64,000 nt of DNA from an uncultured Gammaproteobacteria bacterium (GCA_964443495.1 CAYUCS010000001.1:75542-139541), one strand, 5' to 3'. Positions 6,418 through 63,976 are shown, counted from the stretch's first letter. Made by a program: numbers and translations. Notes: generated by a model from the sequence alone, not told the origin.

Positions 6418-6446
6418 TCGAATTAATTAAAATAAATTATTTTTTT

Positions 6447-43079: not shown

Positions 43080-43114
43080 GGGATATTTGGTATAATTGAA
43101 TTATAAACCATAGA

Positions 43115-44440: not shown

Positions 44441-44496
44441 TAGCAATTTTTATAATCTTTAGTCGCTAAACTTTAGCCCTGCCTGCCGGTAGACGT

Positions 44497-44518
44497 TTTT
44501 TTAAAAAGCTCTTGGAGC
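44497..44518 (+). terminator. Hairpin AAAGCTC-ttg-GAGCTTT plus ttgtt after rsmA
   Basis: 7-bp stem and a short T-run. An extended -10 (TGtTATAAT) follows. Confidence 0.4.
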
Positions 44519-44562
44519 TTTTTGTTGCCTTGTGTTATAATAAGTGCATAAATATTTCCCCC

Positions 44563-45246
44563 ATGCTTGAGGACTCTAAGGAGGTCAACAATCAAGAGTC
44601 TGGGCCGCAAGAGCCGGCGCAGGCAGCTCGTCCAAGTATCAATAAGAACCAGAAATTATTTCTGGCTGTTTTGCTATTGATCGGTTTATCAATGATCGGC
44701 CTTTGGGCGGCACAGCTGCGACAGGGGATTTACCAGCCTTTCCGTCCCAAAAATAGCGGTACTTCCGAAAATGCCCCAGCTGTCGACAATCAGCTTTCCG
44801 AGCAGGCCGACACGGACAAGGACGGACTTTTGGACGTGGATGAAACCGGGGCCTATGGAACGTCGCCATATCTTGAAGATACTGACGGTGACAATATTAA
44901 CGACGGCGCCGAGGTTAGGGCTGGCACTGACCCTAATTGCCCTGAAGGTAATAAGTGCGGCGCCCCCACGACCAGCGGCGCGGAAAATGGCACCACCTCC
45001 GCCGCCATCATCAGCGATGCGGCCACGTCTTCCCCAGCTGCAAAAACCGCTACGCCCGCATCCCAGACTGATTCATCTGCCGGCGGCCTTTCGGAGCAGG
45101 ACATGAAAAACATGCTTGAAGGCAAGATGAGCGCTAGCGCTTTGCGCCAGGCTTTGCTCAAATCAGGGGCCGACCCCAAATTGCTTGACCAGCTGAGCGA
45201 CGAGGACCTGGTGAGCAGCTATAAGAAGTCTCTCAATAGCCAATAA
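44563..45246 (+). CDS. Membrane-anchored protein with Asp-rich DxDxDG calcium-binding-type repeats
   Basis: ATG at 44563 after a TGnTATAAT promoter element. TM LFLAVLLLIGLSMIGLW. DTDKDGLLDVDETG and DTDGDNINDGAE. Confidence 0.45.
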   Translation: MLEDSKEVNNQESGPQEPAQAARPSINKNQKLFLAVLLLIGLSMIGLWAAQLRQGIYQPFRPKNSGTSENAPAVDNQLSEQADTDKDGLLDVDETGAYGTSPYLEDTDGDNINDGAEVRAGTDPNCPEGNKCGAPTTSGAENGTTSAAIISDAATSSPAAKTATPASQTDSSAGGLSEQDMKNMLEGKMSASALRQALLKSGADPKLLDQLSDEDLVSSYKKSLNSQ

Positions 45247-45269
45247 CGGTAAATTGATAAGCAAAATAT

Positions 45270-48200
45270 ATGTACAAATGGTTTAAGGCAAAATTTATAA
45301 AAGCATCAATTTCGGTGTTGGCCGTCGTTTTAATTTCCGGATCTCTTGGCCTGATGTTTGGAGTCGGTAGAGCCGATGCCGCGGGCGAGTCTTTTCCGGC
45401 AAGCATGCCTTGGGTTACTCCGGTTTCCAATCCTTTTGATATTAAAACTTCCGATCAGTCGGCTCTAAGTTCTTACGCGCAACTGTACAAAAAGCAAGAG
45501 GAGCAGAAGCAGACTTCTATTTGGGGCACTTTGAAGGATTACGCGAGCAAGCTCAAGGATTGGGCTCGGGAAGATTTGTGGAACGAGGTGGTCGTGGCTG
45601 GCGGCTCGAAAGCGCTTGGCTCCGCAGTGCGAAACGCTTTGAATACCATTGCAATGGACACCGCCACCTGGCTCGGATCCGGCGGCAATGGCCAAAAACC
45701 ATTATTTTATACCGAAGGATGGGGCGCCTATCTGACCAATGTAGCCGACAACGCAGCTGGCACTTTTGTCGAGCAGCTTGGCAAACAGAACGGTTATGCC
45801 AAGTTCAATCTCTGTAAGCCGAACTTCGCTCTGCAAATGAAGATCGGCTTGGGACTGGTGCAGTCGGTCAAACCATCCGCGCCAGCCTGTACCTTTTCTA
45901 AATTGGTCAGCAACTGGGAGAACGAACTTTCCAGCGAGGATTTCATGGACAAGATACAGTCGTCCTTCGATCCTACAAACAATGATTTCGGAGTAGCGTT
46001 TTCTTTGCAGACCGGCATGTTCCAGCAGATCAATGAAGATAAATATTCGAAATTACTGACCCGCCAAGAGGGCCAGGGGTATATCAATCAAGGAACAAGC
46101 AAGATCGGCGAATCGCTTGGTTTGCCAGCCAAATCAGAAGTCGAGCGCAAGAATTACCTTGATGCCGGCATGAAGGCCAATGCGATCACGCAGTATACCG
46201 GCTATGCGCTAGTAGATGCTGCAAATGTCTTTATTAACCAATTGGCCATAACCGCCTTCAACGAATTGATGAAAAAGCTGGGCGGCAAGAACTACTCTTC
46301 CGGCTACGGCAACTGGAACAGCCTTATCAGCAACTTCAAGGCCGGTCCGGATGCCACTATCGGCGGAGGTATCGCCGCCACGAAAAATCAGCTTCGCAAG
46401 ATCGGAGAACCTCAGTTCAATGTCCGAGGCGATTACAACATCTTGTCAGAATTAAGCTCCTGTCCCAAGCCGGACAAGGCCGGTCCGACCAATTGCGTCA
46501 TCGATGATAAATTCAAGCAGGGAATCCTGGACAAGAAAACCGTGGCCGAAGCCATCAAGCTCGGCTATCTTAACGGGGAGAAGATTGTCGGCTTCTCGAG
46601 CGATGGCGTCGAGCCGCGCTATACGGACGCTTATCCATATCGATCTCTGATAATCTTGCGCAAATTCCGCATCTTGCCCGTCGGCTGGGAAATTGCCGCC
46701 CAGTATATCCGTGACAATCTCGATCCGACAAAGCCTAATGGTGTAGGACCGAAATCCCTGGGTGATTTAGTGGCGTGCTTCGATCAGAATGACGAATATC
46801 CTGGATACTATGCTGCCTGGTGCCAAGGCCTGGTGGATCCGAATTGGCTTTTGAAATCACCATTGAATTATTGCCGTCGCGAGGGACCAGGACCGGAAAA
46901 CATCTCCGATGATGAAGCGACTCTGGTCAGGGGAGACAAGTATTGCGCCGACGAGCAGTCTTGCATCAAGGAAAAGGCGGATGGCTCTTGCGAATATTAC
47001 GGCTATTGCACCGAAGAGCGCCGCAAGTGGAAATTCAATTCCGAATCCTGCGAACCATTGTATAACACCTGCCAAACTTTCAAGAGTGAGAGCGGAGCCT
47101 CGGTTTCTTATTTGAAAAATACCCTTGATTATAGCGGATGCTCCGTGGACAATGCCGGCTGTACCGATTACTGTACAGCTTACAACTTCGCAACCGGCAA
47201 GTATGCCTGTACCGCCACTTCTACCGGCAATAAGGTCTTTTTGGATCGCGATGCCGGCAGCTGCGATCAGAAGGCCGAAGGTTGTACCTCTTTCATCAGG
47301 ACGAAAGAGGGCACGGGCGCTAACCTGCTGTTGAATTCCAGCTTTGAAGACGATTTGGCCACTGGCGCTTGGGCCGCCCTGGGTGCGACCACCTCCGATG
47401 CTTTTTCCGGCTTCAGCAGCTTACAGCTCACGCCTGGCGTATTGACAAAGAATTTTTCTGCCGGCCCGGGGTTAACTTATGTCGGCGGCGAGTATAATAT
47501 AGAAGGCGAGTCGTATACGATTTCCCTGTACTCCAAAAACTGTCCGGCTGGCAGCACGGTTTCTTTGATGGACGGCGCCAATACCGAGTCTGTTTCGATC
47601 GAGTCGGCCGGCACGTGGACATTGAATTCACTTTCCCATGTCTTCATGAGTTCCGGTCCAGCCTTTGATTTCCAATTCAACACCCCTGGCGGCTCGAGCT
47701 GCTTGATTGATGCGGTAAAGATCGAAAAGAGCATCGGCGCTACGCCGTATAGCGAGTACGGTACGACCGGCTTAGTACACGAGAAATACGCACCGAGCTA
47801 CCTTGGCTGCGATGGCGTGGCTGATCCGGCGGAGTGCAAAGATTTTGCCAGAAGCTGCAAATTCGAGGAGGTCGGTTGCGAGCTGTATACTCCGGTCAGC
47901 GGGGATATGCCCGTTCCAGGCAAAGTCAAGCCAGCAGACTACTGCGTGGCCGAATGCGTCGGCTTTGATACCTATCTGCAGTCTCAGACCACTTTCGATT
48001 CATTGCGGCCGGATTATTTCATTCCGAAGACGGCCAAGGCCTGCAGTGCTGAAACCAATGGCTGCGACCAGTTTACTAATCTGGACAAACTTGGGAGCGG
48101 TGCCGAGGCGACCGAATATTATTCATATCTGCGTCAGTGCATTACTTCCGGCGGCACGCAGTTTTATACTTGGGAAGGCTCGAACGAGACTGGCTTCCAG

Positions 48201-51200
48201 TTGAAGGTCGTATCTTTGAAGGCTGATACCGACGCTCACCCGTGGGGTCCGCTCGACCTCGATGGTAACCCGGTTACGCCGAATGTGGCTGATTACATGG
48301 GTGACCCGGCCATAACTGGCGATCGTTTGCAGGAAGTTGCCAAGTGTAATGAACGGATATACCAACTGAAGCAGACTGACCCGGGCTATAATCCTGATTG
48401 CCGCGAATATTATAATACGGCCGGTGTAAAATCCTACCATCTCTATAGCCAGACTATCAGCGAGGACGCCAATTGCCATCCTTATCGCCGCACAGAAGTC
48501 AATATCGACCCTTCCATCACAGTCGCTGGCGCGTGCGTCGGTGCTGACAGGAATTGGAACGCCGCGACTGGCGAGTGCGCGGTCTGCATCAATGGCGGCA
48601 CGTGGAACGTGCAGCAGGGCGCTTGCGTCTATCAGGCCATTCCTGGCCAGGGAACCCAGTGTTCGGCTGCCGCGAATGGCTGCCGCGAGTACACTGGCAA
48701 CACCGGCCAGAGCGTAAGGATCTTGTCAAATAGTGATTTCGAGGACAGCACATTGCAGGGTTGGACCAATTTCAATGGCGCAGCGGCACCGACGCTCAGT
48801 CCCGAGTCAGTCAACATGGGCGGCCACTCTATCTATGTCCAGACCGCTGCGAATAATCAGGGCATAGTGCTTAAAATGCCGACTTCAACCATGCAGGTTG
48901 GCGGGTCTTATGCGATAACATTGATTGCCAAGACACGGACTCCGGTCAATCTCAAGGTGCGTCTTACCAACGCGGCTGCCGCCAATGTCGATTTTGTCGG
49001 CGTCGGAGCGTTAACGGCCGATTGGCAGATGTATCGGGCTAACCTTTCTGAGATGACGGTCGTCGAGGCAGAGAACTTGATTATCGAGGCGGATGTTCCG
49101 GCGGAGTTCTTTGTTGATAACATCAAGCTCACGGAAATATCCAACCGCTTCTATTTGATCAAGAATTCTTGGAATACGCCAGAGACCTGCAATCAGGATT
49201 TGAACAAGAAGCCTTATCCTTTATATATGCTTGGTTGCAATGAGTATAAGGACAGGGATAACCTGACTCACTATTTGAGGTCGTTCTCTTATCTTTGCGG
49301 CGAAGGTTCGGTCGGTTGCGAATTGATGGTTGACATTCACAATTCGACCAACCCGCTTCAGGAGAGTTATAATGCCGTTACGGCTAGGGCAGAGGATGAC
49401 TTGACGGTCCAGGCCGACAACTATGTTTATGCGGTTTATGACAAGAAGAAGCTGTGCCAGTCTGAAGATGTCGGTTGCCAGCGCTTAGGCAAGCCTTACG
49501 ATTATTCCGGCGAACGGCTCCACTCCGACGTGTATCTTAAAAATAACCCCGATAATTATAAGAAGGCGATGTGCGACTATCCCGGCTTAAGCTGCGACGA
49601 ATATGCATCCGGCGATAGCATGACCTATTTCAAGAATCCTGGAGATCTGACTTGCGAGTGGCGCCCGGGTCCGAAAAACGTCTTTGCCTGGTACAAGAAG
49701 AAGGTGAAACGTTGCAATGCCACCGGCCCTGTTTGTTCGACTGATAAGGATTGCGTTTCGCCCCAGAAATGCGAAACCGAAACGGCTGACATATTGTGCT
49801 CAAACGATGCCGGAGTCAATCCGAAAACTTTCGGCATCGGTACCGGTTTCCGCACGGCCCAACCGACAAGGGATGCTGCCGGGGCAAATTGGGTCGGCGT
49901 CTGCCCGGCAGAAGAGTCCGGCTGTACCGAATTCATCGATCCTAAGAGCAGTTTCAACCAGAACCTGCTATTCAATAACGATTTCGCGCAGAACATCAAT
50001 CTTGGAGATGAGCCTAACCGTGACGGCTGGCCCGGAAATATTCAGGGGGTGAAGCTGGATGCCAATACATTGTATGTCCTGAGTGGCACCGGTAATGCCG
50101 GCAGCAGCGTGACGGTCGGCAACTGCACCTCGGCTATCGGCGGTTCAAACGTCAGCCTTTTGGATGCCGCAACCAACTCGTTAAATGCTCCTGCAGCAGC
50201 AGTCACTTTGACGCTCGGGGTCTCGCCGACCAAGACCAGCCTAGCTTTTTATTCTAACAATTCCATAAGATGCAATATCAGTGTCGTGCCGGCCGGTCCA
50301 TTGACTGGCTTGGATTTGGGATTGTATAAAGCCGCCGTCGATTACCAAGTGGACAAGAATCTCGACAGCACCAGCTGCAACGGCCTGGTTGACCAGAGTC
50401 AGGGTTGCGTATTGTTCAATAAGCGGGGGCAGGATGGAGCATCGGTCACGAGCTTGAATTACGATGTCGATACGAGCAGCAGCAGCCCGTCCGTGAGCGT
50501 CGGAATCGAGCGAGATTCCAATATCCTGCTCAAGGTTGCCCCAGACCGCATTTGCGACAAATGGCTTTCTTGCAGATCATCGGTTACCCTGAAAGATCAG
50601 GACGGCAACGACAAGAATGTCTGTCTCGATATCGCACTATGCAACCAGTTCGGCTTCGAAGGCGGCTGCAACGGCACCATCAGCAAGGATAGAAATAATC
50701 AGACCTACAATTATCCGAATCTTGGCGGCGGCCTCTTGAGCGCCAACCAGGTCGGCAACATTAGTGGCTATGCCAAGGTAGGCAAGAATCAGGCCGGTCA
50801 GACCGATGCCCAGATCCCATTCGGTTCGATGCTCCAGTACGGCGCTTCGGCCAACGTTTACAATGGCAACATGGAGCTTGCTGGCGAAAACGGTTATCCG
50901 ATCGGTTGGAAATATCATCTTTCTAACGATGTGTGGGACGAGAAGTCTTTCAAGGTAATTAACACGGTTGCTGCCGTCCAGAATGAAGGCGTCGGCGGCG
51001 CGCCGGAAGGCAGCGGCATCCTGAAGCTCGGCGTCAGGCACGTAATCACTTCAAATTCATTTACCGTCAAGGGTGGCGAGTTTTATATTCTTCAGGCGCA
51101 GGTGAACACCGCCAGGCTGAAGGGCGATGACAATGCCGACCGTGTGCACATGAGGTTTATTTGCATCGATAACGCTATGGCAGAAATCCAGATGGACGAT

Positions 51201-53540
51201 AAGCAAATCTTGCCAGGCGAACTGTGGCATCAGGCCATGTCACCAAGAGTGCAGGCCCCGGCCAATTGTTCAAGGGCAGCAGTCAGATTCGAGGCTGATC
51301 CGGGCATGGAAGGTAATTTCTTCGTTGATGACGTCAAAGTCAAGCCGGTACTAGAAAACCGCACGAACGAATATGTCAGCCAGTCTTGCCGGCTTTACCC
51401 GAAGTCGGAAGCCAAGTCTTGCCAGTATCAGGACAACAGCGGGGTCAGGTACAACGGTTGGTATGGATATTGTCTGGAGAAGGATCGTTATCCGGGCTCC
51501 AACGATGCTTGCTTGCTCTGGTGGCCAGTTGACAAGATAAATGGCGACCCGTTCAGCAAAGAAAATACTTTCAAGGGTTATGATGGCAAGTTCCCGGCTT
51601 ATTATTGCGCCGAGCTGGATGGCAATTATCGTTACGTCGAGAAGCGCTCTGCTGGAATGGTTCTGCATCAGACTGCTTCTAGGGCCTGTTTCTGGGGCAA
51701 CTTCTTTAATGCGGTACTTCTTGGCGCGGTCACTGGGTGGGGTATGGTGCCAGGTTTCGACATTTTGGGCTATAATGGCACTTCTGCTACTGGCGGGCCG
51801 TATTGTCCGACCGGGGCAGGCTATCTGACTCAGACCGCCATGGTGGATTGCAGCTGTGGCTTCTTTGATACGGATTGCACTCAGCATTATTACACTTATT
51901 GTTTGCCAGCTTCTCGAAAATACATAGTTGGTAATGCGGGTGAGACCAACAATGAGTGGGGCGGCGGCGCGTGGTATCAGTTCAATGGCAGCTTGCTCAA
52001 GTGGCAATCTTTGGCTGGGTCCGTCACCACCGAAATCGATAATAGTGTCAGGATTCTTGATATGAGTGCAGCTGGAGCTGGCAATGACGGCGTCTTAGTT
52101 GATCCTGATAAGTATGACTTCCTCCCATGCAAAAAATTCTATCAGACGGTCAGTGAAACGGGTGAGAATAAAGTCTGGCTAGGGCGCTTGGGCGAGGATT
52201 CGAGATATTCTCCGCCGGGCCTGGCCTATCAGTACAAGCAGGATGATGCGCCATACGGATCAGCCGTGCCGCCGACTCCCTTGGATAATCCTTACGATTG
52301 GGATGGCCACACCAAGCCTGGCCGACAGCCGATTTCCTTCAAGCTGCCGGAAAGCCAGCAGGTCCGGGCCGGCTCACCTTACGGCTGTACGGGTGCAAAA
52401 TGCTCCCAGGTCGGCCATTGTGCCGACAGTGGCAGAACCTGCGTGTCCTTGAATTCCGTTACTGAATCGGTTGATTTATGCGCTACGCTAGGTGCTGCTG
52501 CTACGGTTTCTGGCGGTGCCTATAATACGCCCAACCGCTGCTACGCGTCTGAAGTAGCACAAGTCGTGCCGACCAATGTCATGTCCACCCAGTGCACCCG
52601 CATTGCTACCGGCCTTCCTTGCACGCCACAGAGCACAGCTGCATGTAATTGCATTTCGCAACCTACGGGCTTAGCGGCTCCGGCTCCGGCCAACGCGACA
52701 ATTTGCCGCAACGCTGCAAATGCCTATTGCGACCCGGGCTTGTGCAGCGCTCCTGTTGGAGCGGCCTCGTGCAACACCGTCTCGATCGGCGTAACCAATA
52801 TTACTACCGCGGCTGCTGGCGGGCCTTCAGATAATTTGGCCATGGTCTATCCGTCGACGGCATCTTCGACCAATCCAAACGCCAGAACCTGGACACCGCC
52901 GGAATATGCTTGCGAATACGGCGAAGAATGCGTCATTACGCCACAGCCGGATTGGCCAGTCGCCTCGCCGCAGGTGGCGCGTACGGCGGCTCAGACATAC
53001 CCCGCTTTGGAAAACCTCAAGCGCATGTTCGCTAAGAATTACGGCGTCTGGATCTGGAATCCGGCAACCAAGCACTACGAGAAGGATTTCAATCCGGTAG
53101 AGAATTGGGACATCAACAACGACCCGGCTGCCGGCTTCTGCGGCTCTCCGAGACCGGCCTGGAATCCGGGCATTTCGAACGATTATTGCCGCATCCGACC
53201 GGTGGTCGATAACGTGTTAGTCGACAAGAACGTGGTGCGCAAGGGCGATAACGTAATTCTAACCTTTAACTCGCATGTCGATGTCAATCAGTTGCCGGTA
53301 GTATACTATAAGATCGTTTGGGGCGATGGCAAGCCTGATACGGTCGTGACAGGAGAATTCGGTGATCGTCCTAACGCCAACAACCCTCATGTGGTTACCC
53401 ACCGTTATGAGTATAATGATATCCAGGGATGCGCGGCCAACCCTTGCGCCCCCATACAGCCTACCGTAGTCTTGATGGATAACTGGGGAACTGAGAGCGT
53501 AGTTGTGCCGGGTCCGGCGATATCGGTATTCTCGAATTAA
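45270..53540 (+). CDS. Giant (2756 aa) secreted cysteine-rich surface protein with repeated CBM-like (N-x-x-F-E ... G-W) modules
   Basis: Continuous ORF. N-terminal signal/TM (ISVLAVVLISGSLGLMFGVGRADAAG). Many C...C pairs. LLNSSFEDDLATGAW, ILSNSDFEDSTLQGW, LLFNNDFAQNI...GW, and NVYNGNMELAGENGYPIGW motifs. Confidence 0.75.
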   Translation: MYKWFKAKFIKASISVLAVVLISGSLGLMFGVGRADAAGESFPASMPWVTPVSNPFDIKTSDQSALSSYAQLYKKQEEQKQTSIWGTLKDYASKLKDWAREDLWNEVVVAGGSKALGSAVRNALNTIAMDTATWLGSGGNGQKPLFYTEGWGAYLTNVADNAAGTFVEQLGKQNGYAKFNLCKPNFALQMKIGLGLVQSVKPSAPACTFSKLVSNWENELSSEDFMDKIQSSFDPTNNDFGVAFSLQTGMFQQINEDKYSKLLTRQEGQGYINQGTSKIGESLGLPAKSEVERKNYLDAGMKANAITQYTGYALVDAANVFINQLAITAFNELMKKLGGKNYSSGYGNWNSLISNFKAGPDATIGGGIAATKNQLRKIGEPQFNVRGDYNILSELSSCPKPDKAGPTNCVIDDKFKQGILDKKTVAEAIKLGYLNGEKIVGFSSDGVEPRYTDAYPYRSLIILRKFRILPVGWEIAAQYIRDNLDPTKPNGVGPKSLGDLVACFDQNDEYPGYYAAWCQGLVDPNWLLKSPLNYCRREGPGPENISDDEATLVRGDKYCADEQSCIKEKADGSCEYYGYCTEERRKWKFNSESCEPLYNTCQTFKSESGASVSYLKNTLDYSGCSVDNAGCTDYCTAYNFATGKYACTATSTGNKVFLDRDAGSCDQKAEGCTSFIRTKEGTGANLLLNSSFEDDLATGAWAALGATTSDAFSGFSSLQLTPGVLTKNFSAGPGLTYVGGEYNIEGESYTISLYSKNCPAGSTVSLMDGANTESVSIESAGTWTLNSLSHVFMSSGPAFDFQFNTPGGSSCLIDAVKIEKSIGATPYSEYGTTGLVHEKYAPSYLGCDGVADPAECKDFARSCKFEEVGCELYTPVSGDMPVPGKVKPADYCVAECVGFDTYLQSQTTFDSLRPDYFIPKTAKACSAETNGCDQFTNLDKLGSGAEATEYYSYLRQCITSGGTQFYTWEGSNETGFQLKVVSLKADTDAHPWGPLDLDGNPVTPNVADYMGDPAITGDRLQEVAKCNERIYQLKQTDPGYNPDCREYYNTAGVKSYHLYSQTISEDANCHPYRRTEVNIDPSITVAGACVGADRNWNAATGECAVCINGGTWNVQQGACVYQAIPGQGTQCSAAANGCREYTGNTGQSVRILSNSDFEDSTLQGWTNFNGAAAPTLSPESVNMGGHSIYVQTAANNQGIVLKMPTSTMQVGGSYAITLIAKTRTPVNLKVRLTNAAAANVDFVGVGALTADWQMYRANLSEMTVVEAENLIIEADVPAEFFVDNIKLTEISNRFYLIKNSWNTPETCNQDLNKKPYPLYMLGCNEYKDRDNLTHYLRSFSYLCGEGSVGCELMVDIHNSTNPLQESYNAVTARAEDDLTVQADNYVYAVYDKKKLCQSEDVGCQRLGKPYDYSGERLHSDVYLKNNPDNYKKAMCDYPGLSCDEYASGDSMTYFKNPGDLTCEWRPGPKNVFAWYKKKVKRCNATGPVCSTDKDCVSPQKCETETADILCSNDAGVNPKTFGIGTGFRTAQPTRDAAGANWVGVCPAEESGCTEFIDPKSSFNQNLLFNNDFAQNINLGDEPNRDGWPGNIQGVKLDANTLYVLSGTGNAGSSVTVGNCTSAIGGSNVSLLDAATNSLNAPAAAVTLTLGVSPTKTSLAFYSNNSIRCNISVVPAGPLTGLDLGLYKAAVDYQVDKNLDSTSCNGLVDQSQGCVLFNKRGQDGASVTSLNYDVDTSSSSPSVSVGIERDSNILLKVAPDRICDKWLSCRSSVTLKDQDGNDKNVCLDIALCNQFGFEGGCNGTISKDRNNQTYNYPNLGGGLLSANQVGNISGYAKVGKNQAGQTDAQIPFGSMLQYGASANVYNGNMELAGENGYPIGWKYHLSNDVWDEKSFKVINTVAAVQNEGVGGAPEGSGILKLGVRHVITSNSFTVKGGEFYILQAQVNTARLKGDDNADRVHMRFICIDNAMAEIQMDDKQILPGELWHQAMSPRVQAPANCSRAAVRFEADPGMEGNFFVDDVKVKPVLENRTNEYVSQSCRLYPKSEAKSCQYQDNSGVRYNGWYGYCLEKDRYPGSNDACLLWWPVDKINGDPFSKENTFKGYDGKFPAYYCAELDGNYRYVEKRSAGMVLHQTASRACFWGNFFNAVLLGAVTGWGMVPGFDILGYNGTSATGGPYCPTGAGYLTQTAMVDCSCGFFDTDCTQHYYTYCLPASRKYIVGNAGETNNEWGGGAWYQFNGSLLKWQSLAGSVTTEIDNSVRILDMSAAGAGNDGVLVDPDKYDFLPCKKFYQTVSETGENKVWLGRLGEDSRYSPPGLAYQYKQDDAPYGSAVPPTPLDNPYDWDGHTKPGRQPISFKLPESQQVRAGSPYGCTGAKCSQVGHCADSGRTCVSLNSVTESVDLCATLGAAATVSGGAYNTPNRCYASEVAQVVPTNVMSTQCTRIATGLPCTPQSTAACNCISQPTGLAAPAPANATICRNAANAYCDPGLCSAPVGAASCNTVSIGVTNITTAAAGGPSDNLAMVYPSTASSTNPNARTWTPPEYACEYGEECVITPQPDWPVASPQVARTAAQTYPALENLKRMFAKNYGVWIWNPATKHYEKDFNPVENWDINNDPAAGFCGSPRPAWNPGISNDYCRIRPVVDNVLVDKNVVRKGDNVILTFNSHVDVNQLPVVYYKIVWGDGKPDTVVTGEFGDRPNANNPHVVTHRYEYNDIQGCAANPCAPIQPTVVLMDNWGTESVVVPGPAISVFSN

Positions 53541-53541
53541 G

Positions 53542-54141
53542 ATGATTGAAATCAACCAACAACAAGCTGCGCTGGATTTGCGTCTGGCGCAAGCGGCCGA
53601 ACGCAATGGCATCGAGTCCGAAGAGCCAGTTGTTGAGCAGCCGGAAATGTCGTTGCGCCAACGGCTAGCGGCAAAAAGAAAGGCAGAAAAGTATAAGTAC
53701 GCTGCGGATGAGAGGCTTGATCGGGCAAGGATTAGGACAGAAGAACGATTTATAAAGGCTTCCTCAGCCAGAGCGTTACGGGCAGCATGGCTGAGCGAAG
53801 GGACGATAGTCGGTTTTTTGTTCGGATTGGCTTATATTAATCTCCATGTATTCCTAAGGTTAGTCTTCGGTCCGGATATGTTTTGCAAGCTAGGTGAGGA
53901 GTGGTCGTTAGGCAAAGCTGGGTCAGTCGGAAAGACGGCAAGCATAGGTGCTTTTTGGGCAGAGGTCCTGCAACTAATCTTCTTTGACTTATTGATATTT
54001 GGTGCAGTCGCTTATTCCATTTTTTGGCTTTATTTGCTGGCGGAGTTGATAAATATACCTTCGTGGGAGACGGTTAAGGAAGTGGGTATACTTTTCTTTG
54101 AGCCTTTATGGGAATTGATAAAAACTAACATGACGTCATGA
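53542..54141 (+). CDS. Membrane protein (hypothetical), first gene after the giant ORF
   Basis: ATG 2 nt after the giant gene's stop. Polar N-terminal half and 3-4 TM in the C-terminal half. Stop overlaps the next start (ATGA). Confidence 0.5.
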   Translation: MIEINQQQAALDLRLAQAAERNGIESEEPVVEQPEMSLRQRLAAKRKAEKYKYAADERLDRARIRTEERFIKASSARALRAAWLSEGTIVGFLFGLAYINLHVFLRLVFGPDMFCKLGEEWSLGKAGSVGKTASIGAFWAEVLQLIFFDLLIFGAVAYSIFWLYLLAELINIPSWETVKEVGILFFEPLWELIKTNMTS

Positions 54142-56783: not shown

Positions 56784-56793
56784 AAGCAAAACT

Positions 56794-57927
56794 ATGTCTA
56801 ATATAGCTAATCAATTTTTGACAAAGTTAGAAAGTCTTCCGCCCGAGGCTCAGTTTTATTTTGATTCGGAGTTTTTGGGCCTTAAAATAAAGGACTTGTC
56901 TTCCAGATACGGACTTGCTGATACGGATATAAACGAACTGGTCTATTTGGCAGTTGCGGGTGACTTCAACTTTGCCAGCATTGATAACCATGAAGTTTTC
57001 TTAGGAATCAAGGATGATGTTTTGAAAAAGCAGCTTATAAGCGATTTTTGGGGCGCAATCATTTTGCCCGTTGCGGGATATGTCGGCATTCCTGCTCTTG
57101 CGGGAGCAATCAAGTCCAGGTTGGGCGATTGGCAAAGATACACCATTGACATCAATGAGCTAGAAGAAGAATTGAAAGACGAGCACTCGAGAGTTATGGA
57201 AGAGTTGGCAATCATTAAGGATGAAATAACGGACATTAATGAGGAGGTGAACGTCGCGCGGAGCCTTTTTGCCAATGGCTTGTTGTATGTCCTGCAAAAC
57301 AATGATGATAATTCTATTTTTGATCTTAACGCCGGCTTAGTTTATTTGTTAAACAAGGAACCGTCCTTGAAAGATGAGCTAGCCGAGTTCATTATTGAAA
57401 ACCAAGAAAAGCTCTCAGAAAAAACCATACTTATCGATGGTAAGCAGGAGCAACCGACAGTGGCCAATTGGCTGAAAGATTTTATGCAGAAGCAGGGCGG
57501 AGGGAATATTAATAATTTGGCAGTGACCCAATATCTTACCAATTCTGAGAACGCGAAGATTCTTGATCGTGAACAAAAGACATTGTTGGGTGATGTTTTG
57601 GAGCTGTATAGAAATATCAAGTTTTTTCCTGAAAGCATGAAAGATGTTCCGCCAGAGCAGTGGTTTATTGTTCCTGTTGAGCCCTTATTTTTGGAGTCTG
57701 TCAGAAAGAAGGCCGGCACAAACAAGATAGATGCCAGTAAACCATTACTAGTCAAGTCTCCGCAAAATGTCCGGTCGGAAAAGGTCGATGTAGAGCCGAT
57801 GCCACAACCGATTGTTAATCCAACTGAAGCAAGAAGAAAAGAATTGCAATTGATGGCCGAAACCTTTCCTGTCGGCAGCCTTGAGCGCAGGGCTTTGGAG
57901 CAGGAAATCGCAAGTCTGAATAAATAA
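56794..57927 (+). CDS. hypothetical protein (N-terminal domain paralogous to the next gene)
   Basis: ATG at 56794 (MSNIANQFLTKLESLPPEAQ). Confidence 0.5.
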   Translation: MSNIANQFLTKLESLPPEAQFYFDSEFLGLKIKDLSSRYGLADTDINELVYLAVAGDFNFASIDNHEVFLGIKDDVLKKQLISDFWGAIILPVAGYVGIPALAGAIKSRLGDWQRYTIDINELEEELKDEHSRVMEELAIIKDEITDINEEVNVARSLFANGLLYVLQNNDDNSIFDLNAGLVYLLNKEPSLKDELAEFIIENQEKLSEKTILIDGKQEQPTVANWLKDFMQKQGGGNINNLAVTQYLTNSENAKILDREQKTLLGDVLELYRNIKFFPESMKDVPPEQWFIVPVEPLFLESVRKKAGTNKIDASKPLLVKSPQNVRSEKVDVEPMPQPIVNPTEARRKELQLMAETFPVGSLERRALEQEIASLNK

Positions 57928-57934
57928 AACAATT

Positions 57935-59392
57935 ATGAGTTTTGATTATCTTAGAAAATTCAACGAGCTGCCCGTCGAAGTGAAAGAGGCCGCTTCTTCG
58001 CCGGAAGCGATGGCTGTCTTGGACAAGCTGGAAGAGCAATATCATGTCAATCTGGCCAGCTCGGTCATGCGCATCCTGGTTAAGGAAATCAAGTTGTCCG
58101 AGTTGGACAAGCATTTGCTGATCGATTTAAAGATGGGCCCAGCCGAGGCTGTGGCCGTAGCCGCCTCATTGAGGGACAAGATTCTGTCTCCGGCTATGAA
58201 ATATCTTGAAACGGAGGCTTCGGCGCCGGTCGCAAAAGGACAGGAGCTGGTAGAAATTGAGCACAATCTTCCTGACGCGCCAGCCAATCACGGGCACGCG
58301 GAAGAAGAAGTGGTTGAGCTTTCCCAGGAGCTGAAGGAGCTTAATCGCGAAAAGACTTTGCAGTTGGATCTTAAGGTGAGCAACCAGGAAGATATTTTCA
58401 ATGAAGAGGACGAGACGGAAATCAAGGTCTTGACGGAACAGATCGGCACGATCGAGAAGCCCAAGGATGGCCAAGCGGAAGCGAATCTGGCCAAGCTCAT
58501 CGAGGAATGCAAGATAAGTTTTTCCAGCCAGATCTTAGTCGATCGTTTCCGGCAGATTCTTAGCACTTACTTAAAGGGAATAAGGAAGAAGATCGAGACC
58601 AAGGATGCCATGCTTAAACCCATCGAGGCGGGCGGACTGAACCTTGATAACGCTGAAATAGAGCGCGTTATGCAGTTGGCTCAGAAATACGCACCAACGG
58701 ACGATGGCGCCAAGATCGAGCAGCCGAAGAAAATCGTACTGCCCGAAGACAAGTTGGCGTCTGATCGGATGGCAGTGCTGAAAGAGATCGGTGCGCGCGA
58801 TGTCGAATACGATCTGGGCAAGGCCATCGAGGCCCGCCAAAGCCAAGTGCCAGCCAGCGAGCCGGCGAAACCGGTGACTGAGCCGATCGCGCCGCAAGCA
58901 GCGCCGATTACGCCAGCAACACCCGTCACGCCGCCCCCGGTAGTCGAAGCGCCGAAGCCCGAAACGGCACAGCTGACGGCAGAGCCAGCGAAAAAAACAT
59001 TCTCGTTTTTCCGCAGCTCCGATGCGATAGGCAAGAAAAAGATGCAGGACGTGAAATTCGTGCCCAAGACCATGGGGCCGATCGATGAGCTGCGCTTCAT
59101 GGATACGGTCAGTTTTCGACGTTTGGGCAAGGTAGCTTCCGAGAGCACTGCGAAGCTGAAGGATAAGATAGCTCTTTTGGAAAAAGAGCAGTATGCTAAG
59201 AAGCTCGAGGGCATAAAGGCCTGGAGGCAGAGCCCGCTGAACCAGCTTTATATCTCGATGACCCAGAACGCCTTGAGCAAAGGCGCCAGTATTGACCAGA
59301 TCATAGCGCAAAAATCGCAAGCTAACGAAGATTGTTTGAACCAGGCGGAGTTTGAAGCTATAATGAAGTTAAATCAAGATTTAAGATTCTAG
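57935..59392 (+). CDS. hypothetical acidic protein (N-terminal domain paralogous to the previous gene)
   Basis: MSFDYLRKFNELPVEVKEAASSPEAMAVLD... Pro-rich linker PITPATPVTPPPVVEAPKP. Confidence 0.5.
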   Translation: MSFDYLRKFNELPVEVKEAASSPEAMAVLDKLEEQYHVNLASSVMRILVKEIKLSELDKHLLIDLKMGPAEAVAVAASLRDKILSPAMKYLETEASAPVAKGQELVEIEHNLPDAPANHGHAEEEVVELSQELKELNREKTLQLDLKVSNQEDIFNEEDETEIKVLTEQIGTIEKPKDGQAEANLAKLIEECKISFSSQILVDRFRQILSTYLKGIRKKIETKDAMLKPIEAGGLNLDNAEIERVMQLAQKYAPTDDGAKIEQPKKIVLPEDKLASDRMAVLKEIGARDVEYDLGKAIEARQSQVPASEPAKPVTEPIAPQAAPITPATPVTPPPVVEAPKPETAQLTAEPAKKTFSFFRSSDAIGKKKMQDVKFVPKTMGPIDELRFMDTVSFRRLGKVASESTAKLKDKIALLEKEQYAKKLEGIKAWRQSPLNQLYISMTQNALSKGASIDQIIAQKSQANEDCLNQAEFEAIMKLNQDLRF

Positions 59393-59395
59393 GAT

Positions 59396-59830
59396 ATGCA
59401 GCAATTCACAGTACCGCAGTTTATCGATGTCGAAGACAAGATTATCGGGCCGATTACCACGCGCCAATTCGTCATAATTTTGGCTTCATTCATGATAATC
59501 GCCCTGTGCTACCGCCTTTTTGATTTCTCAGCCTTTATCTTTTTTTCGGTCATCATTTTCGCGGTAATGGTGGTATTGGCATTCGTCAAGATTAACGGAC
59601 GGCCGTTTCATTTTTTTCTACTGAACATCATCCAGACCTTCAAGCGCCCCAAGACCAGGATCTGGCTCAAGGAAGATGATGTCGAGTCGTCGGTCGAGGC
59701 GGAGGATCCTTCACTGAAAAGGTTTGAGCCGGTACCGGTCAAGGAATATACTTTGGGCGGCTCAAGGCTTGATGAGATGTCGTTGATCGTCGATACCCAA
59801 GGTGCATATCGCGGAGAAATCAGAAAATAA
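59396..59830 (+). CDS. PrgI/VirB3-like small membrane protein
   Basis: MQQFTVPQFIDVEDKIIGPITTRQF followed by two TM helices. This matches the PrgI-family N-terminus as recalled from memory. Confidence 0.45.
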   Translation: MQQFTVPQFIDVEDKIIGPITTRQFVIILASFMIIALCYRLFDFSAFIFFSVIIFAVMVVLAFVKINGRPFHFFLLNIIQTFKRPKTRIWLKEDDVESSVEAEDPSLKRFEPVPVKEYTLGGSRLDEMSLIVDTQGAYRGEIRK

Positions 59831-59837
59831 AAACATT

Positions 59838-60515
59838 ATGGAAAATAAGCTAGCCGCCGGAAAAATAAACAAGTCAACACAGCATTATCTGGACATCGCG
59901 GAAATCCGCGATGATACGGTGATAATGAAAGACAGCACCATGCGTTCGGTGCTGTTGGTTTCGAGCATTAATTTCTCACTCAAGAGCGAGGACGAGCAGA
60001 ATGCCGTCATCTCGTCTTATGTCAGCTTCCTGAATAATATCGATTTTCCAGTCCAGATCGTAATCCAGTCGCGCGAACTCGATATCGAGAAATACCTGAA
60101 CAGCCTGAAACAGAAAGAAAAAGGGCAGACTAATGAACTTTTGAAAATCCAGATCAATGACTACATACAGTATATCGGCGAATTGATCTCGATCGGCAAG
60201 ATTATGAGCAAGCGTTTTTACGTGGTCGTCTCCTTCAATCCGATGTCCGATAAGCAGAAAGGTTTCTTCAGCTCGATGAAAGAAGCGTTCAAGCCGGTCA
60301 ACCTGGTCAAGATGAAGAGAGAGACTTTCTTGCGCCGCCGCCACGAGCTTACTCGCCGAGTCGATAACGTCATGAGCGGCTTGGCCTCGATCGGCCTGAA
60401 ATCAGTGGAATTAGACACGCAAAGCTTGATCGAGCTTTATTACAATACATACAATCCGGTCGTTTCCGCACATGAAAAGCTGGTTGATATTAAAAAATTG
60501 CGCGTAACCGAATAA
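59838..60515 (+). CDS. VirB4/TrbE-like N-terminal domain protein (separate ORF)
   Basis: ATG at 59838 (MENKLAAGKINKSTQHYLDIAEIRDDTVIMKDSTMRSVLLVSSINF...). Precedes the ATPase ORF and is in a different frame. Confidence 0.5.
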   Translation: MENKLAAGKINKSTQHYLDIAEIRDDTVIMKDSTMRSVLLVSSINFSLKSEDEQNAVISSYVSFLNNIDFPVQIVIQSRELDIEKYLNSLKQKEKGQTNELLKIQINDYIQYIGELISIGKIMSKRFYVVVSFNPMSDKQKGFFSSMKEAFKPVNLVKMKRETFLRRRHELTRRVDNVMSGLASIGLKSVELDTQSLIELYYNTYNPVVSAHEKLVDIKKLRVTE

Positions 60516-60517
60516 AC

Positions 60518-62437
60518 ATGTTCAATTTAAACGATGTAAAAAACCAAAATACCCAGACAACAGGCCAGGCAGCAGCGCAAAAGCCGGTCATGCCGGTCGT
60601 GGACCCCAAGGAAACCAAGGAGGCTCGCGACATTATCGAGCAGGAAAAGGCCTTCCGACGCGGCGTCGTTTCGATCCGTGACCTTATCGCCCCGGCCAGT
60701 TTCCAGATCAATTCAGATTACTTGCGCTTGGGCGAGAAATTCGTCCGTACCTTGTTCGTCATCAATTATCCGCGTTATATCAGTGTGGGCTGGTTCTCGC
60801 CGATTATCAACCTGAATTCGACTTTCGATATCGCCATGTTTTTCTACCCGGTAGCTGCCGGAGTGGTCTTGAAGCAGCTGAAGAACAAGGTGGGCGCCTT
60901 GGAGGCTCAGATCATCGCCGACGCGGAAAAGGGAGCTGCTCGCGATCCGTTGCGCGAGACGGCTTTGAGAGATATTGAGGCCTTGCGCGACGCCTTGACT
61001 CAGGGAACCGAGAAATTCTTCCAGTTCGCTTTGTATGTTTCACTGTATGCCGATTCCAAAGAAGAGCTGGACAACCTTTCCGATGAGATCGAGAATATTT
61101 TCGGATCGCGCCTAGTCTATTCCCGCCGAGTCTTCTTCCAAGCGGAACAAGGCTTTAATTCGACTATGCCGCTGGGTAACGATGAGCTGTTCATCTGCTT
61201 CAATATGAACTCTTCTCCGGTCGCTTCATCATTTCCGTTCATGTCTTCGGAATTAACGACAGACAACGGCGTGCTGTACGGCATTAACAGGCACAATAAC
61301 AGCTTGATCCTATTTGACCGCTTCAGCTTGCAGAACGCCAATTCAGTGGTGTTTGCCACCTCCGGTTCTGGAAAATCCTATACCGTCAAATTAGAAATTT
61401 TACGCAGCTTAATGATCGGTACGGAGGTTATCATTATCGATCCGGAATACGAGTACAAGCATTTGTCCGACGCGGTCGGAGGCACATACATCAACATCTC
61501 GTTGTCGAGCGAAAATAAAATCAATCCGTTCGATTTGCCGCGCTCGATCGGCGGCGATGCAAGGGCTGAGGACATCATCCGCAGCGCTGTCATTACGGTC
61601 AAGGGCCTTTTGAAGATCATGCTCGGCCAGTTGACCAACGAAGAGGATTCGATCATTGATCGCGCCCTTTTGGAAACCTATGCCAAGAAAGACATTACGC
61701 CAGACGCCGACCTGTCAAAGGTCGAAGCGCCGATCCTCCAGGATTTCCAGGACATTCTCGAGGGCATGGAAGGTTCAGCCGACCTTGTGGTCCGCTTGAA
61801 GAAATATACCGAAGGCACGTTCGCCGGGCTGTTGAACAATCCGACCAACGTCAAGATGGATAACCAGCTGATTTGCTTTTCCGTCCGCGATTTGGAGGAT
61901 GAGTTGCGCCCGATGTCCATCTATACCATCATCAATTATATCTGGAATATCGTCCGTTCAGAAACCAAGCGACGCATCCTGGTGATCGATGAAGCCTGGT
62001 GGATGATGCAGCATGAAGATTCGGCGAAGTTCATTTTTGCCTTGGTCAAGCGCTGCCGCAAGTACTACCTTGGCGTCACGACGATCACCCAGGATGTCAA
62101 CGACTTTTTGCGTTCGCCATACGGCCAGGCCATCGTGACCAACTCTTCATTGCAATTGCTCCTGAAGCAGTCGCCCGCCTCGATCGAGATGATCCAAAAG
62201 ACCTTTAGCCTGACGGAAGGCGAGAAGTACCTGCTGATGGAGTGCGGCGTGGGCGAGGGCATCTTCTTTGCCGGGCCTAGGCACGCGGCCATAAAAGTGG
62301 TAGCTTCATACACCGAGGACCAGCTGATTACCACCGACCCGAAGCAGCTTTTGGAAATAGAGGAGGCGAAGCGTGAATTCGCAGCTAGCGTCGATACGGC
62401 GCAGGGATCTGCCCAGGACATGAATATCGACTTATAA
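60518..62437 (+). CDS. VirB4/TrbE/CagE-like type IV secretion ATPase (C-terminal ATPase portion)
   Basis: Walker A VVFATSGSGKSYT, Walker B-like ILVIDEAWWMM, overall VirB4 architecture. Confidence 0.8.
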   Translation: MFNLNDVKNQNTQTTGQAAAQKPVMPVVDPKETKEARDIIEQEKAFRRGVVSIRDLIAPASFQINSDYLRLGEKFVRTLFVINYPRYISVGWFSPIINLNSTFDIAMFFYPVAAGVVLKQLKNKVGALEAQIIADAEKGAARDPLRETALRDIEALRDALTQGTEKFFQFALYVSLYADSKEELDNLSDEIENIFGSRLVYSRRVFFQAEQGFNSTMPLGNDELFICFNMNSSPVASSFPFMSSELTTDNGVLYGINRHNNSLILFDRFSLQNANSVVFATSGSGKSYTVKLEILRSLMIGTEVIIIDPEYEYKHLSDAVGGTYINISLSSENKINPFDLPRSIGGDARAEDIIRSAVITVKGLLKIMLGQLTNEEDSIIDRALLETYAKKDITPDADLSKVEAPILQDFQDILEGMEGSADLVVRLKKYTEGTFAGLLNNPTNVKMDNQLICFSVRDLEDELRPMSIYTIINYIWNIVRSETKRRILVIDEAWWMMQHEDSAKFIFALVKRCRKYYLGVTTITQDVNDFLRSPYGQAIVTNSSLQLLLKQSPASIEMIQKTFSLTEGEKYLLMECGVGEGIFFAGPRHAAIKVVASYTEDQLITTDPKQLLEIEEAKREFAASVDTAQGSAQDMNIDL

Positions 62438-62464
62438 TAATCGCGCTTTGGCGCAATCAAACAT

Positions 62465-63055
62465 ATGGATCGTCGTTTTGTAGGATTTTTTTTCATCGGT
62501 TTAGGAGTTATCATTCTGATTTTGATAATCTATTTCCTGTTTTTCTTCAAATTCAATAAGCCGCAAGACGTACCGAAGCAGCAGGGGGCGACTTCTACCC
62601 CGGCGGTCAAGACCGTTGTCGAGCCGCCGAAAATCCTTGAGGTCAAGCCGGTGACCAAGGAAGAGCTCGACCAGGAGGGGGTCAAGAGGTTGGCGGCCAG
62701 CTTTGCCGAACGGTTCGGCAGCTATTCCAGCCATTCGAATTTCCAGAACATGGAAGATTTGAAGCTGTTCATGACCGACAAGATGAAAACTTGGTCCGAA
62801 GACTTCGTCAAGACCCAAGCTTTGAAACAAGCGGGCAACACAGAGTATTATGGCATTACGACCAAGGCAGTCACCAAGAAAATGGTTGATTTCGACGAGT
62901 CGAAGGGTACCGCCAAGGTTTTGATCCAGACACAGCGTCGCGAAACCGTCGGTTCGGCTGGCAATCCTGTCAGTTTCGGCCAGTCGATCGAAGTCAGCCT
63001 GCTAAAACAAGGGGGCACATGGAAGGTCGACCAGGCCTATTGGAAGGACAGATAG
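62465..63055 (+). CDS. Membrane-anchored protein (VirB8-like size and topology; speculative)
   Basis: N-terminal TM (FFFIGLGVIILILIIYFLFFF) followed by a ~150-aa soluble domain. Confidence 0.4.
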   Translation: MDRRFVGFFFIGLGVIILILIIYFLFFFKFNKPQDVPKQQGATSTPAVKTVVEPPKILEVKPVTKEELDQEGVKRLAASFAERFGSYSSHSNFQNMEDLKLFMTDKMKTWSEDFVKTQALKQAGNTEYYGITTKAVTKKMVDFDESKGTAKVLIQTQRRETVGSAGNPVSFGQSIEVSLLKQGGTWKVDQAYWKDR

Positions 63056-63056
63056 G

Positions 63057-63779
63057 ATGGGCCACCTTAAGCTGGTAAAAAACAAGATTTCAGCCATTGG
63101 ATCTTGTTTTTTTGACGCTATTTTCCCGAAACGCTGTGTCGCTTGCGGCGCCCAAGGCGAGTGGCTGTGCCGTGCTTGCTCCGAGCTGCAGCTGTTCCGT
63201 CCAGAACAGGATTGCCTGGTTTGCGGCCGCCCCAACGTTGACGGCAGCAAGTGTGCCCAGTGCGTTCAGTTCGCCCATACCAGGCAAGTTTTGTGCGCCT
63301 TCAGTTACCGGCAGGATGCGCTGGTGAAATTGGTAAAAATGTTCAAATATGACTTTGTGAAGTCGGTCGGACCGACATTGGAAGAATTGATGACGGATTT
63401 CGTATTCGAGCAAGGCGGGTTAGTTCGCGACGCCTTGGTCTTGCCGGTGCCTTTGCACCCCAAACGTTTGCGTTGGCGCGGCTACAATCAGTCGGCAGTG
63501 TTGGCCGAAGCTTTGGCTAGGCGCTTCGGCTGGCGCTATGATGCCGGAATTTTGGAACGGCACAAGATGACCAAGCCTCAGGCCAAGCTGGAAACGGAGG
63601 CTCGTTGCCTTAATGTCGACGGCTGTTTTTCGGTCAAGCCAGGAACTGGTCTTGCAGGCAAGAGAGTTATCTTGGTTGATGACGTGGTTACGACCGGGGC
63701 AACTATCGAGGCCTGCGCTTCGGCCTTGAAGCGAGCCGGTGCCAGGTCGGTCGATGTCGTGGCGCTCATAAGAGGTTAG
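63057..63779 (+). CDS. comF: ComF-family protein (ComFC-like phosphoribosyltransferase with an N-terminal Zn ribbon)
   Basis: CVACGAQGEWLCRAC...CLVCGRP...CAQC, and a VILVDDVVTTGATIEAC PRTase motif. Confidence 0.8.
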   Translation: MGHLKLVKNKISAIGSCFFDAIFPKRCVACGAQGEWLCRACSELQLFRPEQDCLVCGRPNVDGSKCAQCVQFAHTRQVLCAFSYRQDALVKLVKMFKYDFVKSVGPTLEELMTDFVFEQGGLVRDALVLPVPLHPKRLRWRGYNQSAVLAEALARRFGWRYDAGILERHKMTKPQAKLETEARCLNVDGCFSVKPGTGLAGKRVILVDDVVTTGATIEACASALKRAGARSVDVVALIRG

Positions 63780-63886
63780 TCGGCGCTCAAAAGGAGGGTT
63801 TACAAAAGCAGTGCTTTATATTAGAATGTGTATATCGCTCAATAACCAAGTATTTTGGTTATTTTTGTGTAAAAATAGCAAAAAAT

Positions 63887-63976
63887 GGAGAGATGCCTGA
63901 GTGGTTGAAAGGAGCATCCTGCTAAGATGTTGAGCCTTCACGGGCTCCGAGGGTTCGAATCCCTCTCTCTCCGCCA
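63887..63976 (+). tRNA. tRNA-Ser (anticodon GCU), long variable arm, encoded CCA
   Basis: GGAGAGA acceptor stem closing with TCTCTCC-G-CCA. Anticodon loop CTGCTAA. T-arm GAGGGTTCGAATCCCTC. 90 nt. Confidence 0.85.

Follow-up and report, generated by a model that had tools for sequence, protein, structure and literature searches.

We analysed a 64-kb stretch of DNA deposited under an uncultured Gammaproteobacteria bacterium (GCA_964443495.1, CAYUCS010000001.1:75542-139541). It is called the window below, and coordinates are counted from its first letter. The work concerns a unit of 11 same-strand genes at 44563-63779 with every gap 27 nt or less, in which the gene of a giant cysteine-rich protein is joined to genes of a type IV secretion system (T4SS) and to comF (Table 1). 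The genes are named up5, the giant gene and g2 to g10 in the order in which they are read. An initial annotation had described the genes from the giant gene onwards, and its 2756-aa open reading frame (ORF), its nine following genes and all its gaps and overlaps were found to be exact in our ORF map. The giant ORF contains no internal stop between ATG and TAA and is joined to g2 as TAA G ATG, with a 1-nt gap before the g2 ATG at 53542. g2 and g3 overlap by 4 nt in an ATGA (g3 start at 54138). The further gaps are +10 nt before 56794, +7 before 57935, +3 before 59396, +7 before 59838, +2 before 60518, +27 before 62465 and +1 before 63057, the start of the last gene. The set of genes given for 45270-63779 was thus correct, and the start of the unit most likely lies one gene earlier, at up5 (44563).

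No terminator-like site was found in the gaps between the giant gene and 63779. Over the region from 44 to 64 kb, terminator-like sites were at chance level (23 against 23.9 +/- 5.8 expected) and promoter-like sites about two standard deviations above the shuffle mean (28 against 19.3 +/- 4.2). The hairpin after ksgA is the probable upstream boundary of the unit, and the hairpin behind comF probably marks the end of the transcription unit. A candidate promoter with the extended -10-like sequence TGtTATAAT precedes up5; its -35 is weak (TTGGAG, 3 of 6 matches) and it was therefore missed by the consensus scan. Apart from the tRNA-Ser behind the unit, an Rfam scan of the whole window gave no match. 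The GC content of third codon positions was 0.47-0.52 in g2, g3 and g4, and 0.57-0.76 in the giant gene, the remaining T4SS genes and the housekeeping genes.

Proteins encoded by the unit and its surroundings

The VirB4-like ATPase and the PrgI/VirB3-like protein of the initial annotation were both recovered above the family cut-offs. g8 scored 368.5 bits with NF045971, the CD1110 family of NCBIfam (cut-off 325), matched PF19044 (P-loop_TraG) with an E-value of 2.7e-30, and carries a Walker A motif (ATSGSGKS) at residue 280 and a Walker B motif (ILVIDE) at residue 487. g6 scored 37.8 bits with PF12666 (E 2.9e-9, cut-off 27). An additional component, missing from the earlier list, is the TrsD-like g7, a paralogue of the VirB4 N-terminal region. 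It matched the NCBIfam TrsD model NF041427 (E 3.8e-7; 30 bits, where the cut-off for the full length is 200) and positions 99-234 of VirB4_plasma (E 7.9e-11), and its homologues match PF26593 (TraC-like). The gene at 62465, g9, was found to encode a VirB8-like bitopic protein with support for an NTF2-like fold, as had been proposed. The initial annotation had also noted that VirD4, a relaxase and VirB11 are missing from the unit; none of these, nor any other type IV coupling protein (T4CP), was found in any scanned ORF of the window, inside the unit or outside it.

The assignment of g3 as VirB6/TrbL-like received weak support. The protein has about seven transmembrane (TM) helices within residues 1-330 and a C-terminal half of 540 aa that is Lys/Glu-rich and coiled-coil-like. 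Pfam gave no match for the window protein or for the family consensus; 5 of 45 homologues matched PF04610 (best E about 1e-3), and the precomputed annotations of 55 homologues list PF19590 (TrbL_3) for 11 of them and PF04610 for one. When the family profile was compared with PDB sequences, it returned coiled-coil noise from the C-terminal half only and no VirB6. Topology and gene position are consistent with VirB6/TrbL, and g3 is probably an extended VirB6/TrbL-like protein with weak support from hidden Markov models (HMMs). Extended VirB6 proteins such as RvhB6 of the Rickettsiales and TcpH of pCW3 (PMC12857230) share with g3 at least five TM helices and a large hydrophilic C-terminal domain, whereas the sequence support for g3 as a member of VirB6/TrbL is weak.

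For g2, g3, g4 and g5 nothing significant was found with Pfam and NCBIfam, nor with Pfam on the consensus sequences of g2, g3 and g4. g4 and g5 have in common an N-terminal domain of some 100 aa, as hhalign showed (probability 98.5%, E 1.6e-15); BLASTP of one against the other gave nothing (E 1.1), so that a profile-profile comparison was needed to detect it. At the end of the unit, g10 has the ComF/ComFC architecture, with PF18912 (DZR_2) at 34.3 bits and PF00156 at 40.1 bits, both over their cut-offs, and with TIGR00201 at 101 bits (cut-off 233.55) and GntX at 112 bits, both under theirs.

The giant protein was confirmed to be Cys-rich, with 98 Cys (3.6%). In a comparison with 26 homologues of about 40% identity, 57 of these were invariant and 66 were conserved in at least 80%. 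The N-terminus is of the Sec type; there is no further TM or hydrophobic segment, no C-terminal TM helix and no LPXTG motif. The suggestion that the protein is a substrate of the T4SS is not favoured, because with a Sec-type N-terminus of its own it needs no T4SS to exit the cytoplasm. The most conserved part, residues ~95-500, is poor in Cys, and the Cys-rich modules that follow carry a recurring GCxx[FYLM] motif. An AlphaFold2 model of residues 92-700, built from a 20-sequence alignment, shows the region ~95-500 as mostly helical at a confidence that makes it unusable (mean predicted local distance difference test score, pLDDT, of 43; predicted template-modelling score of 0.26). Two beta-sandwich modules of the CBM4_9 type lie at residues 686-831 and 1151-1287 and match one another with E 2e-8; a third is probably present at 1861-2029. 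CBM_4_9 is the sole Pfam match of the protein (E 2.5e-7) and is matched by the family consensus in two stretches (E 5e-19), and the family profile found CBM jelly rolls only among PDB sequences. A fourth CBM-like module had been suspected from motifs at 1562-1699 and was rejected, as no HMM supported it. The region ~2110-2580 is variable and is followed by a conserved C-terminal domain.

Members of the giant family are 2300-3100 aa long, and those matches that bear an organism name carry the labels Patescibacteria, Falkowbacteria or Parcubacteria. In the set of species-representative genomes 458 stretches were confirmed. A profile of the N-terminal domain found 1134 clusters (50% identity, E <= 1e-30), in which the domain is nearly always the N-terminus of a giant protein. 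The product of up5 is a bitopic membrane protein (TM 32-50) with two Cys and a bacterial TSP3 repeat of the Ca-binding kind (PF18884, 26.4 bits, cut-off 25; family consensus E 6e-8).

Additionally, two proteins with VirB2-like pilin domains and a DsbA-like protein are encoded on the opposite strand 6-8 kb upstream. Both pilin proteins exceed the PF18895 cut-off of 26.6 bits. The one fused to an NlpC/P60 hydrolase likely has a VirB1-type function, and the DsbA-like protein is a plausible folding factor for exported Cys-rich proteins. Many related loci keep the trio upstream of leuS; L086 has a pilin domain joined to an SLT lytic transglycosylase in place of NlpC/P60. The other scanned ORFs of the window are housekeeping genes on both flanks (gyrA, uvrB, ileS, leuS, ruvA and others).

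Two small exported proteins are encoded between leuS and ksgA (42117-43579) at a position where such genes are also found in related loci. The first (320 aa, minus strand) has an internal duplication and a TSP3-repeat match of 17 bits, below the cut-off, and the second (154 aa, 8 Cys) is a membrane protein. At the edge of the window, a plus-strand ORF of 715 aa (10-2157) had no Pfam match at E <= 0.01; possibly it is the terminal part of a further large protein without annotation. A 343-aa protein encoded at 6408-7439 (plus strand) gave a weak match to GILT-type thiol reductases (E 9e-5); along with the DsbA-like gene, it is a hint that the organism has an extracytoplasmic thiol-disulfide system.

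Table 1. Positions of the genes and sequence signals in and around the unit.
Feature	Position	Strand	Description	Family match
Pilin-NlpC/P60 fusion	36839-37816	-	VirB2-like T4SS pilin domain fused to NlpC/P60 cell-wall hydrolase	PF18895 (31.5 bits), PF00877 (30.3 bits)
Second pilin-domain protein	37826-38698	-	VirB2-like; C-terminal part with 14 Cys	PF18895 (33.6 bits)
DsbA-like gene	38695-39387	-	Membrane-anchored thiol-disulfide oxidoreductase	PF13462 (E 9e-25), PF01323 (E 7e-18)
ksgA	43583-44440			
Upstream hairpin	44479-44499	+	Terminator-like hairpin and T-run after ksgA, CTGCCTGCCGGTAG then ACGTTTTTTT	
Candidate promoter	44533-44541	+	Extended -10-like element, 22 nt 5' of the ATG at 44563	
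up5	44563-45246	+	227 aa; stop 23 nt 5' of the giant gene	
Giant gene	45270-53540	+	2756 aa	
g2	53542-54141	+	199 aa; charged N-terminal part, two TM helices	
g3	54138-56783	+	881 aa; polytopic	
g4	56794-57927	+	377 aa; one hydrophobic segment (81-106)	none
g5	57935-59392	+	485 aa; soluble, Pro-rich linker	none
g6	59396-59830	+	PrgI/VirB3-like small membrane protein, two TM helices	PF12666
g7	59838-60515	+	TrsD-like; free-standing homologue of the VirB4 N-terminal region	
g8	60518-62437	+	VirB4-family ATPase	NF045971, PF19044
g9	62465-63055	+	VirB8-like bitopic protein: N-terminal TM helix, linker, NTF2-like domain	
g10	63057-63779	+	ComF/ComFC-type; double zinc ribbon and phosphoribosyltransferase domain	PF18912, PF00156
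Downstream hairpin	63842-63867	+	A/U-rich hairpin then U-run, 3' of comF	
tRNA-Ser	63887-63976			

Conservation of the locus in relatives

We retrieved 84 loci surrounding homologues of the giant gene and used iterated HMMs to assign the ORFs in them. Of the 55 loci with at least 3.5 kb of sequence downstream of the giant gene, to which this count was limited, 51 (93%) have a g3 homologue 3' of the giant gene and in its orientation; in 31 of the 55 the distance is no more than 1.5 kb. g2 is kept between the giant gene and g3 in relatives. On the other side, 52 of 68 loci have up5 as the immediate 5' neighbour of the giant gene and in its orientation, and in 43 of them no more than 48 nt lie between the two. 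g5 is invariably directly 5' of the PrgI gene. Conservation of the cluster in relatives, which the initial annotation had proposed to check, was confirmed: in L001 and L002 the whole order up5-giant-g2-g3-g4-g5-PrgI-TrsD-VirB4-VirB8-like is kept with giant proteins 38-39% identical. The closest public genome, a Falkowbacteria metagenome-assembled genome (MAG) with 83% identity (GCA_013336275.1), has the identical order, comF included. All close homologues of the VirB4 protein g8 come from contigs labelled Patescibacteria. Many contigs that carry this locus (L014, L018, L025, L028, L033, L058 and others) are found under the titles 'uncultured Gammaproteobacteria', 'Tangfeifania' or 'Bacillota', which are probably placeholder or wrong MAG taxonomy labels.

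Judged by gene order, the 18.5-kb stretch is better viewed as three modules, up5-giant-g2-g3-g4, g5-PrgI-TrsD-VirB4-VirB8-like and comF, which are contiguous and tightly packed in this lineage. A small gene with matches to 23S_rRNA_IVP and bAvd, an accessory of diversity-generating retroelements, was seen directly after g4 in several related loci (L003, 15843-16229; L090, 4829-5212; L091, 778-1170) and not in the window.

The gene directly 3' of the VirB8-like gene is comF in 5 of 10 loci (the window, L004, L086, L087 and L090), a DsbA gene in three (L002, L056 and L085) and radA in two (L088 and L089); in L091 a lipase-like gene follows and comF lies about 3 kb beyond. Among the six loci that reach several kb past the VirB8-like gene, radA and/or recG are present within a few kb in all but L090. 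ComF had been regarded as the integral end of the unit. It does lie 1 nt after the VirB8-like gene here, but given its adjacency in only half of the loci we infer that it is a co-transcribed neighbouring competence gene in this lineage and not a defining part of the machine.

Relation to the T4SS of Patescibacteria

T4SSs across the Patescibacteria have been described by Quinonero-Coronel et al. 2025 (PMC12102498; reviewed in PMC12857230), and the locus can therefore not be called an undescribed system, as the initial annotation had it. In that survey, the VirB4 proteins form a clade related to MPF_FATA, and TrsD is the commonest neighbour of virB4, which is also accompanied by PrgI/VirB3, VirB6 and arrays of VirB2-like pilins. 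VirB8 matches are rare and nearly confined to the class ABY1. The systems have no relaxase, and their T4CP genes usually lie elsewhere, often far from virB4. They are located on the chromosome near dnaA, ksgA and rnpA, and the loci of ABY1 are commonly found with comF, recG and radA (PMC12102498).

The locus in the window agrees with this inventory in its VirB4 gene beside a TrsD-like gene, its PrgI/VirB3 and VirB8-like proteins, the VirB2-like pilin genes nearby and the lack of a relaxase and of a nearby T4CP; its polytopic protein g3 is probably the VirB6-like part. It is likewise chromosomal and near ksgA, with comF, recG and radA around. This agreement, together with the HMM matches of VirB4, TrsD and PrgI, the VirB8-like fold and the pilin, NlpC/P60 and DsbA-like genes, identifies the locus very probably as a chromosomal, non-conjugative T4SS of monoderm Patescibacteria, in an ABY1/Falkowbacteria version related to MPF_FATA. 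It differs in that PMC12102498 makes no mention of the giant protein, up5, g2, g4 or g5, whereas in the window these extra genes adjoin the core without interruption and, in this lineage, are closely packed with it. CBM_4_9, PF02018 and ComF did not occur in the searched supplements of PMC12102498. Our literature search found no paper that describes the giant protein, up5, g2, g4 or g5, or that links a giant or Cys-rich protein to a T4SS of the candidate phyla radiation. The combination of a giant gene with a T4SS core, which had been put forward as new, is accordingly new in one part: the arrangement of T4SS and ComF is published, and the conserved linkage of the giant protein appears to be novel.

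Possible role of the giant protein

Considering the genes alone, a functional coupling of the giant protein and the T4SS is plausible. We regard it as reasonably probable that the locus as a whole is an ABY1-type T4SS with the giant protein as its host-contact part; the host-contact role taken by itself we hold to have slightly better than an even chance. In such a machine, VirB4 and TrsD would energise a membrane channel of VirB3, VirB6 and VirB8 in the service of an epibiotic lifestyle and not of conjugation, with pilins and a wall hydrolase supplied from the genes nearby. The giant protein would be exported by Sec, folded oxidatively, possibly via the neighbouring DsbA-like protein, and retained at the cell surface through up5, g2 and g3. 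There it would act as an adhesin or an extracellular stalk whose CBM4_9-like modules bind glycans of the host envelope, in a role that parallels the PrgB-type adhesins of Gram-positive conjugation operons.

The prgQ operon of the Enterococcus faecalis plasmid pCF10 encodes the surface proteins PrgA, PrgB and PrgC followed by the T4SS genes PrgD-PrgL. It shares with our locus a monoderm core of the MPF_FATA type (PrgI, PrgJ/VirB4, PrgH/VirB6 and PrgL/VirB8) and the position of the genes of large surface proteins upstream of the T4SS genes. The likeness is functional only: the giant protein has no sequence similarity to PrgB, no PrgB adhesin domain and no LPXTG, it is twice as long as PrgB and disulfide-rich, and the locus here is chromosomal and non-mobile, without relaxase or T4CP.

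Several observations weigh against a host-contact part of the T4SS. The matches on which the VirB6 label of g3 is based are weak ones, and the fold of the N-terminal domain of the giant protein was not obtained (pLDDT 43), which leaves no structural tie to a T4SS component. leuS, ksgA and the pilin and DsbA genes are equally syntenic; as leuS and ksgA are clearly unrelated, synteny alone is no proof of shared function. In many genomes pfkB, ahcY, metK or an EamA/riboflavin kinase fusion lies exactly between g4 and g5, and an AAA_14/DUF4143 gene sometimes splits the giant gene from g2. Four of the 55 giant genes (L009, L038, L045 and L074) have no g3 homologue within 6-10 kb, and two T4SS cores, L088 and L089, have no adjacent giant gene.

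An alternative is that the genes are neighbours without partnership, with the giant protein and up5 forming an independent surface, adhesin or envelope protein in a slowly rearranging block and read-through resulting from genome compactness. The conserved leuS, ksgA and DsbA-like genes of this block, the housekeeping genes between modules, the giant genes without g2 or g3 nearby and the T4SS cores without a giant gene all fit such a reading, and very large surface proteins without any link to a T4SS are common in Patescibacteria (PMC13059738). It accounts less well for a g3 gene that follows the giant gene on the same strand in 93% of loci, and for the 1-nt gap from stop to start followed by an ATGA overlap in this lineage. 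Moreover, the products of up5, the giant gene, g2 and g3 all belong to the envelope, and no adhesin was detected in the survey of Patescibacteria T4SS, so that the role is vacant (PMC12102498). We therefore consider a mere neighbourhood rather unlikely, though it is the most serious alternative to a host-contact role.

The role of the Patescibacteria T4SS has been called completely unknown (PMC11665869, PMC12857230), and uptake of the ComB style has already been proposed for it (PMC11665869). Applied to this locus, the T4SS would import host nucleic acid that ComF, RadA and RecG process in the cytoplasm, and the giant protein would capture the host or the substrate. The ComB system of Helicobacter pylori is likewise a relaxase-less T4SS proposed to act with competence proteins, and the idea draws on the ComF gene 1 nt after the VirB8-like gene here and directly after it in four other loci, on radA and/or recG in all but one of the extended loci, and on the published ABY1 association with comF, recG and radA. 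It is weakened by the variable adjacency of ComF, whose place is taken by DsbA or radA in half of the loci. ComB, as a diderm system, includes VirB7, VirB9 and VirB10; no homologue of these was found in the unit by Pfam and NCBIfam scans, nor does the unit contain ComEC or ComEA. In addition, the T4SS is reported to be essential and comEC dispensable in Southlakia epibionticum (PMC11665869, PMC12857230; for the T4SS also Wang et al. 2023, as cited in PMC12102498), a Saccharibacterium and the one patescibacterium tested genetically, so that the essential role there is not ComEC-dependent uptake. Taken together, nucleic acid uptake is an improbable main function of the unit.

Another alternative is modelled on Bordetella. 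Its Ptl system exports the Sec-dependent, disulfide-bonded pertussis toxin, whose ptx genes immediately precede ptl in a shared operon. The giant protein could similarly be a cargo that leaves by Sec, acquires its disulfides outside the membrane and is finally driven across the wall, or freed from it, by a T4SS without T4CP. Its Sec-type N-terminus and many conserved Cys, the DsbA-like gene nearby, the lack of a T4CP in the window and the giant gene immediately upstream of the T4SS genes would agree with this. The likeness is one of analogy only: Ptl is diderm, has VirB7, VirB9, VirB10 and VirB11 and exports a small AB5 toxin, whereas in a monoderm there is no outer membrane to be crossed, and a chain of 2756 aa built from rigid beta-sandwich and disulfide modules makes an unlikely T4SS passenger. 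As T4CP genes are often far from virB4 (PMC12102498), their absence from 64 kb says little. We consider such export very unlikely.

Finally, a remnant or active conjugative element has a practically negligible probability and a mobile origin was rejected, since, although the VirB4 score exceeds the threshold set for the CD1110 family from a Clostridioides difficile conjugative transposon, the set of conjugative MPF_FATA systems of the pCF10, pIP501 and conjugative transposon type (relaxase, oriT, VirD4/TcpA) was not found in the window, no integrase or flanking repeat was seen around the locus, its neighbours to either side are housekeeping genes, and its place on the chromosome is the same across relatives with giant proteins as low as ~31-33% identical.

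The preferred reading thus remains an ABY1-type T4SS in which the giant protein makes the host contact. A more specific version of it, which we put forward tentatively and consider doubtful as it stands, is that the giant protein and up5, g2, g4 and g5 constitute a dedicated module of the ABY1 T4SS, a disulfide-stabilised stalk or tip that docks on host envelope glycans and forms or guides a conduit for exchange. If this were true, the module would supply the adhesin that the Patescibacteria T4SS has so far lacked and would represent a structural class without counterpart in known T4SSs. As a huge, conserved and secreted family with modules of a glycan-binding type, encoded 5' of a VirB6-like gene in most relatives, the giant protein is in any case a candidate for host contact in ABY1, and up5, g2, g4 and g5 would be further, so far unannotated partner genes added to the system.

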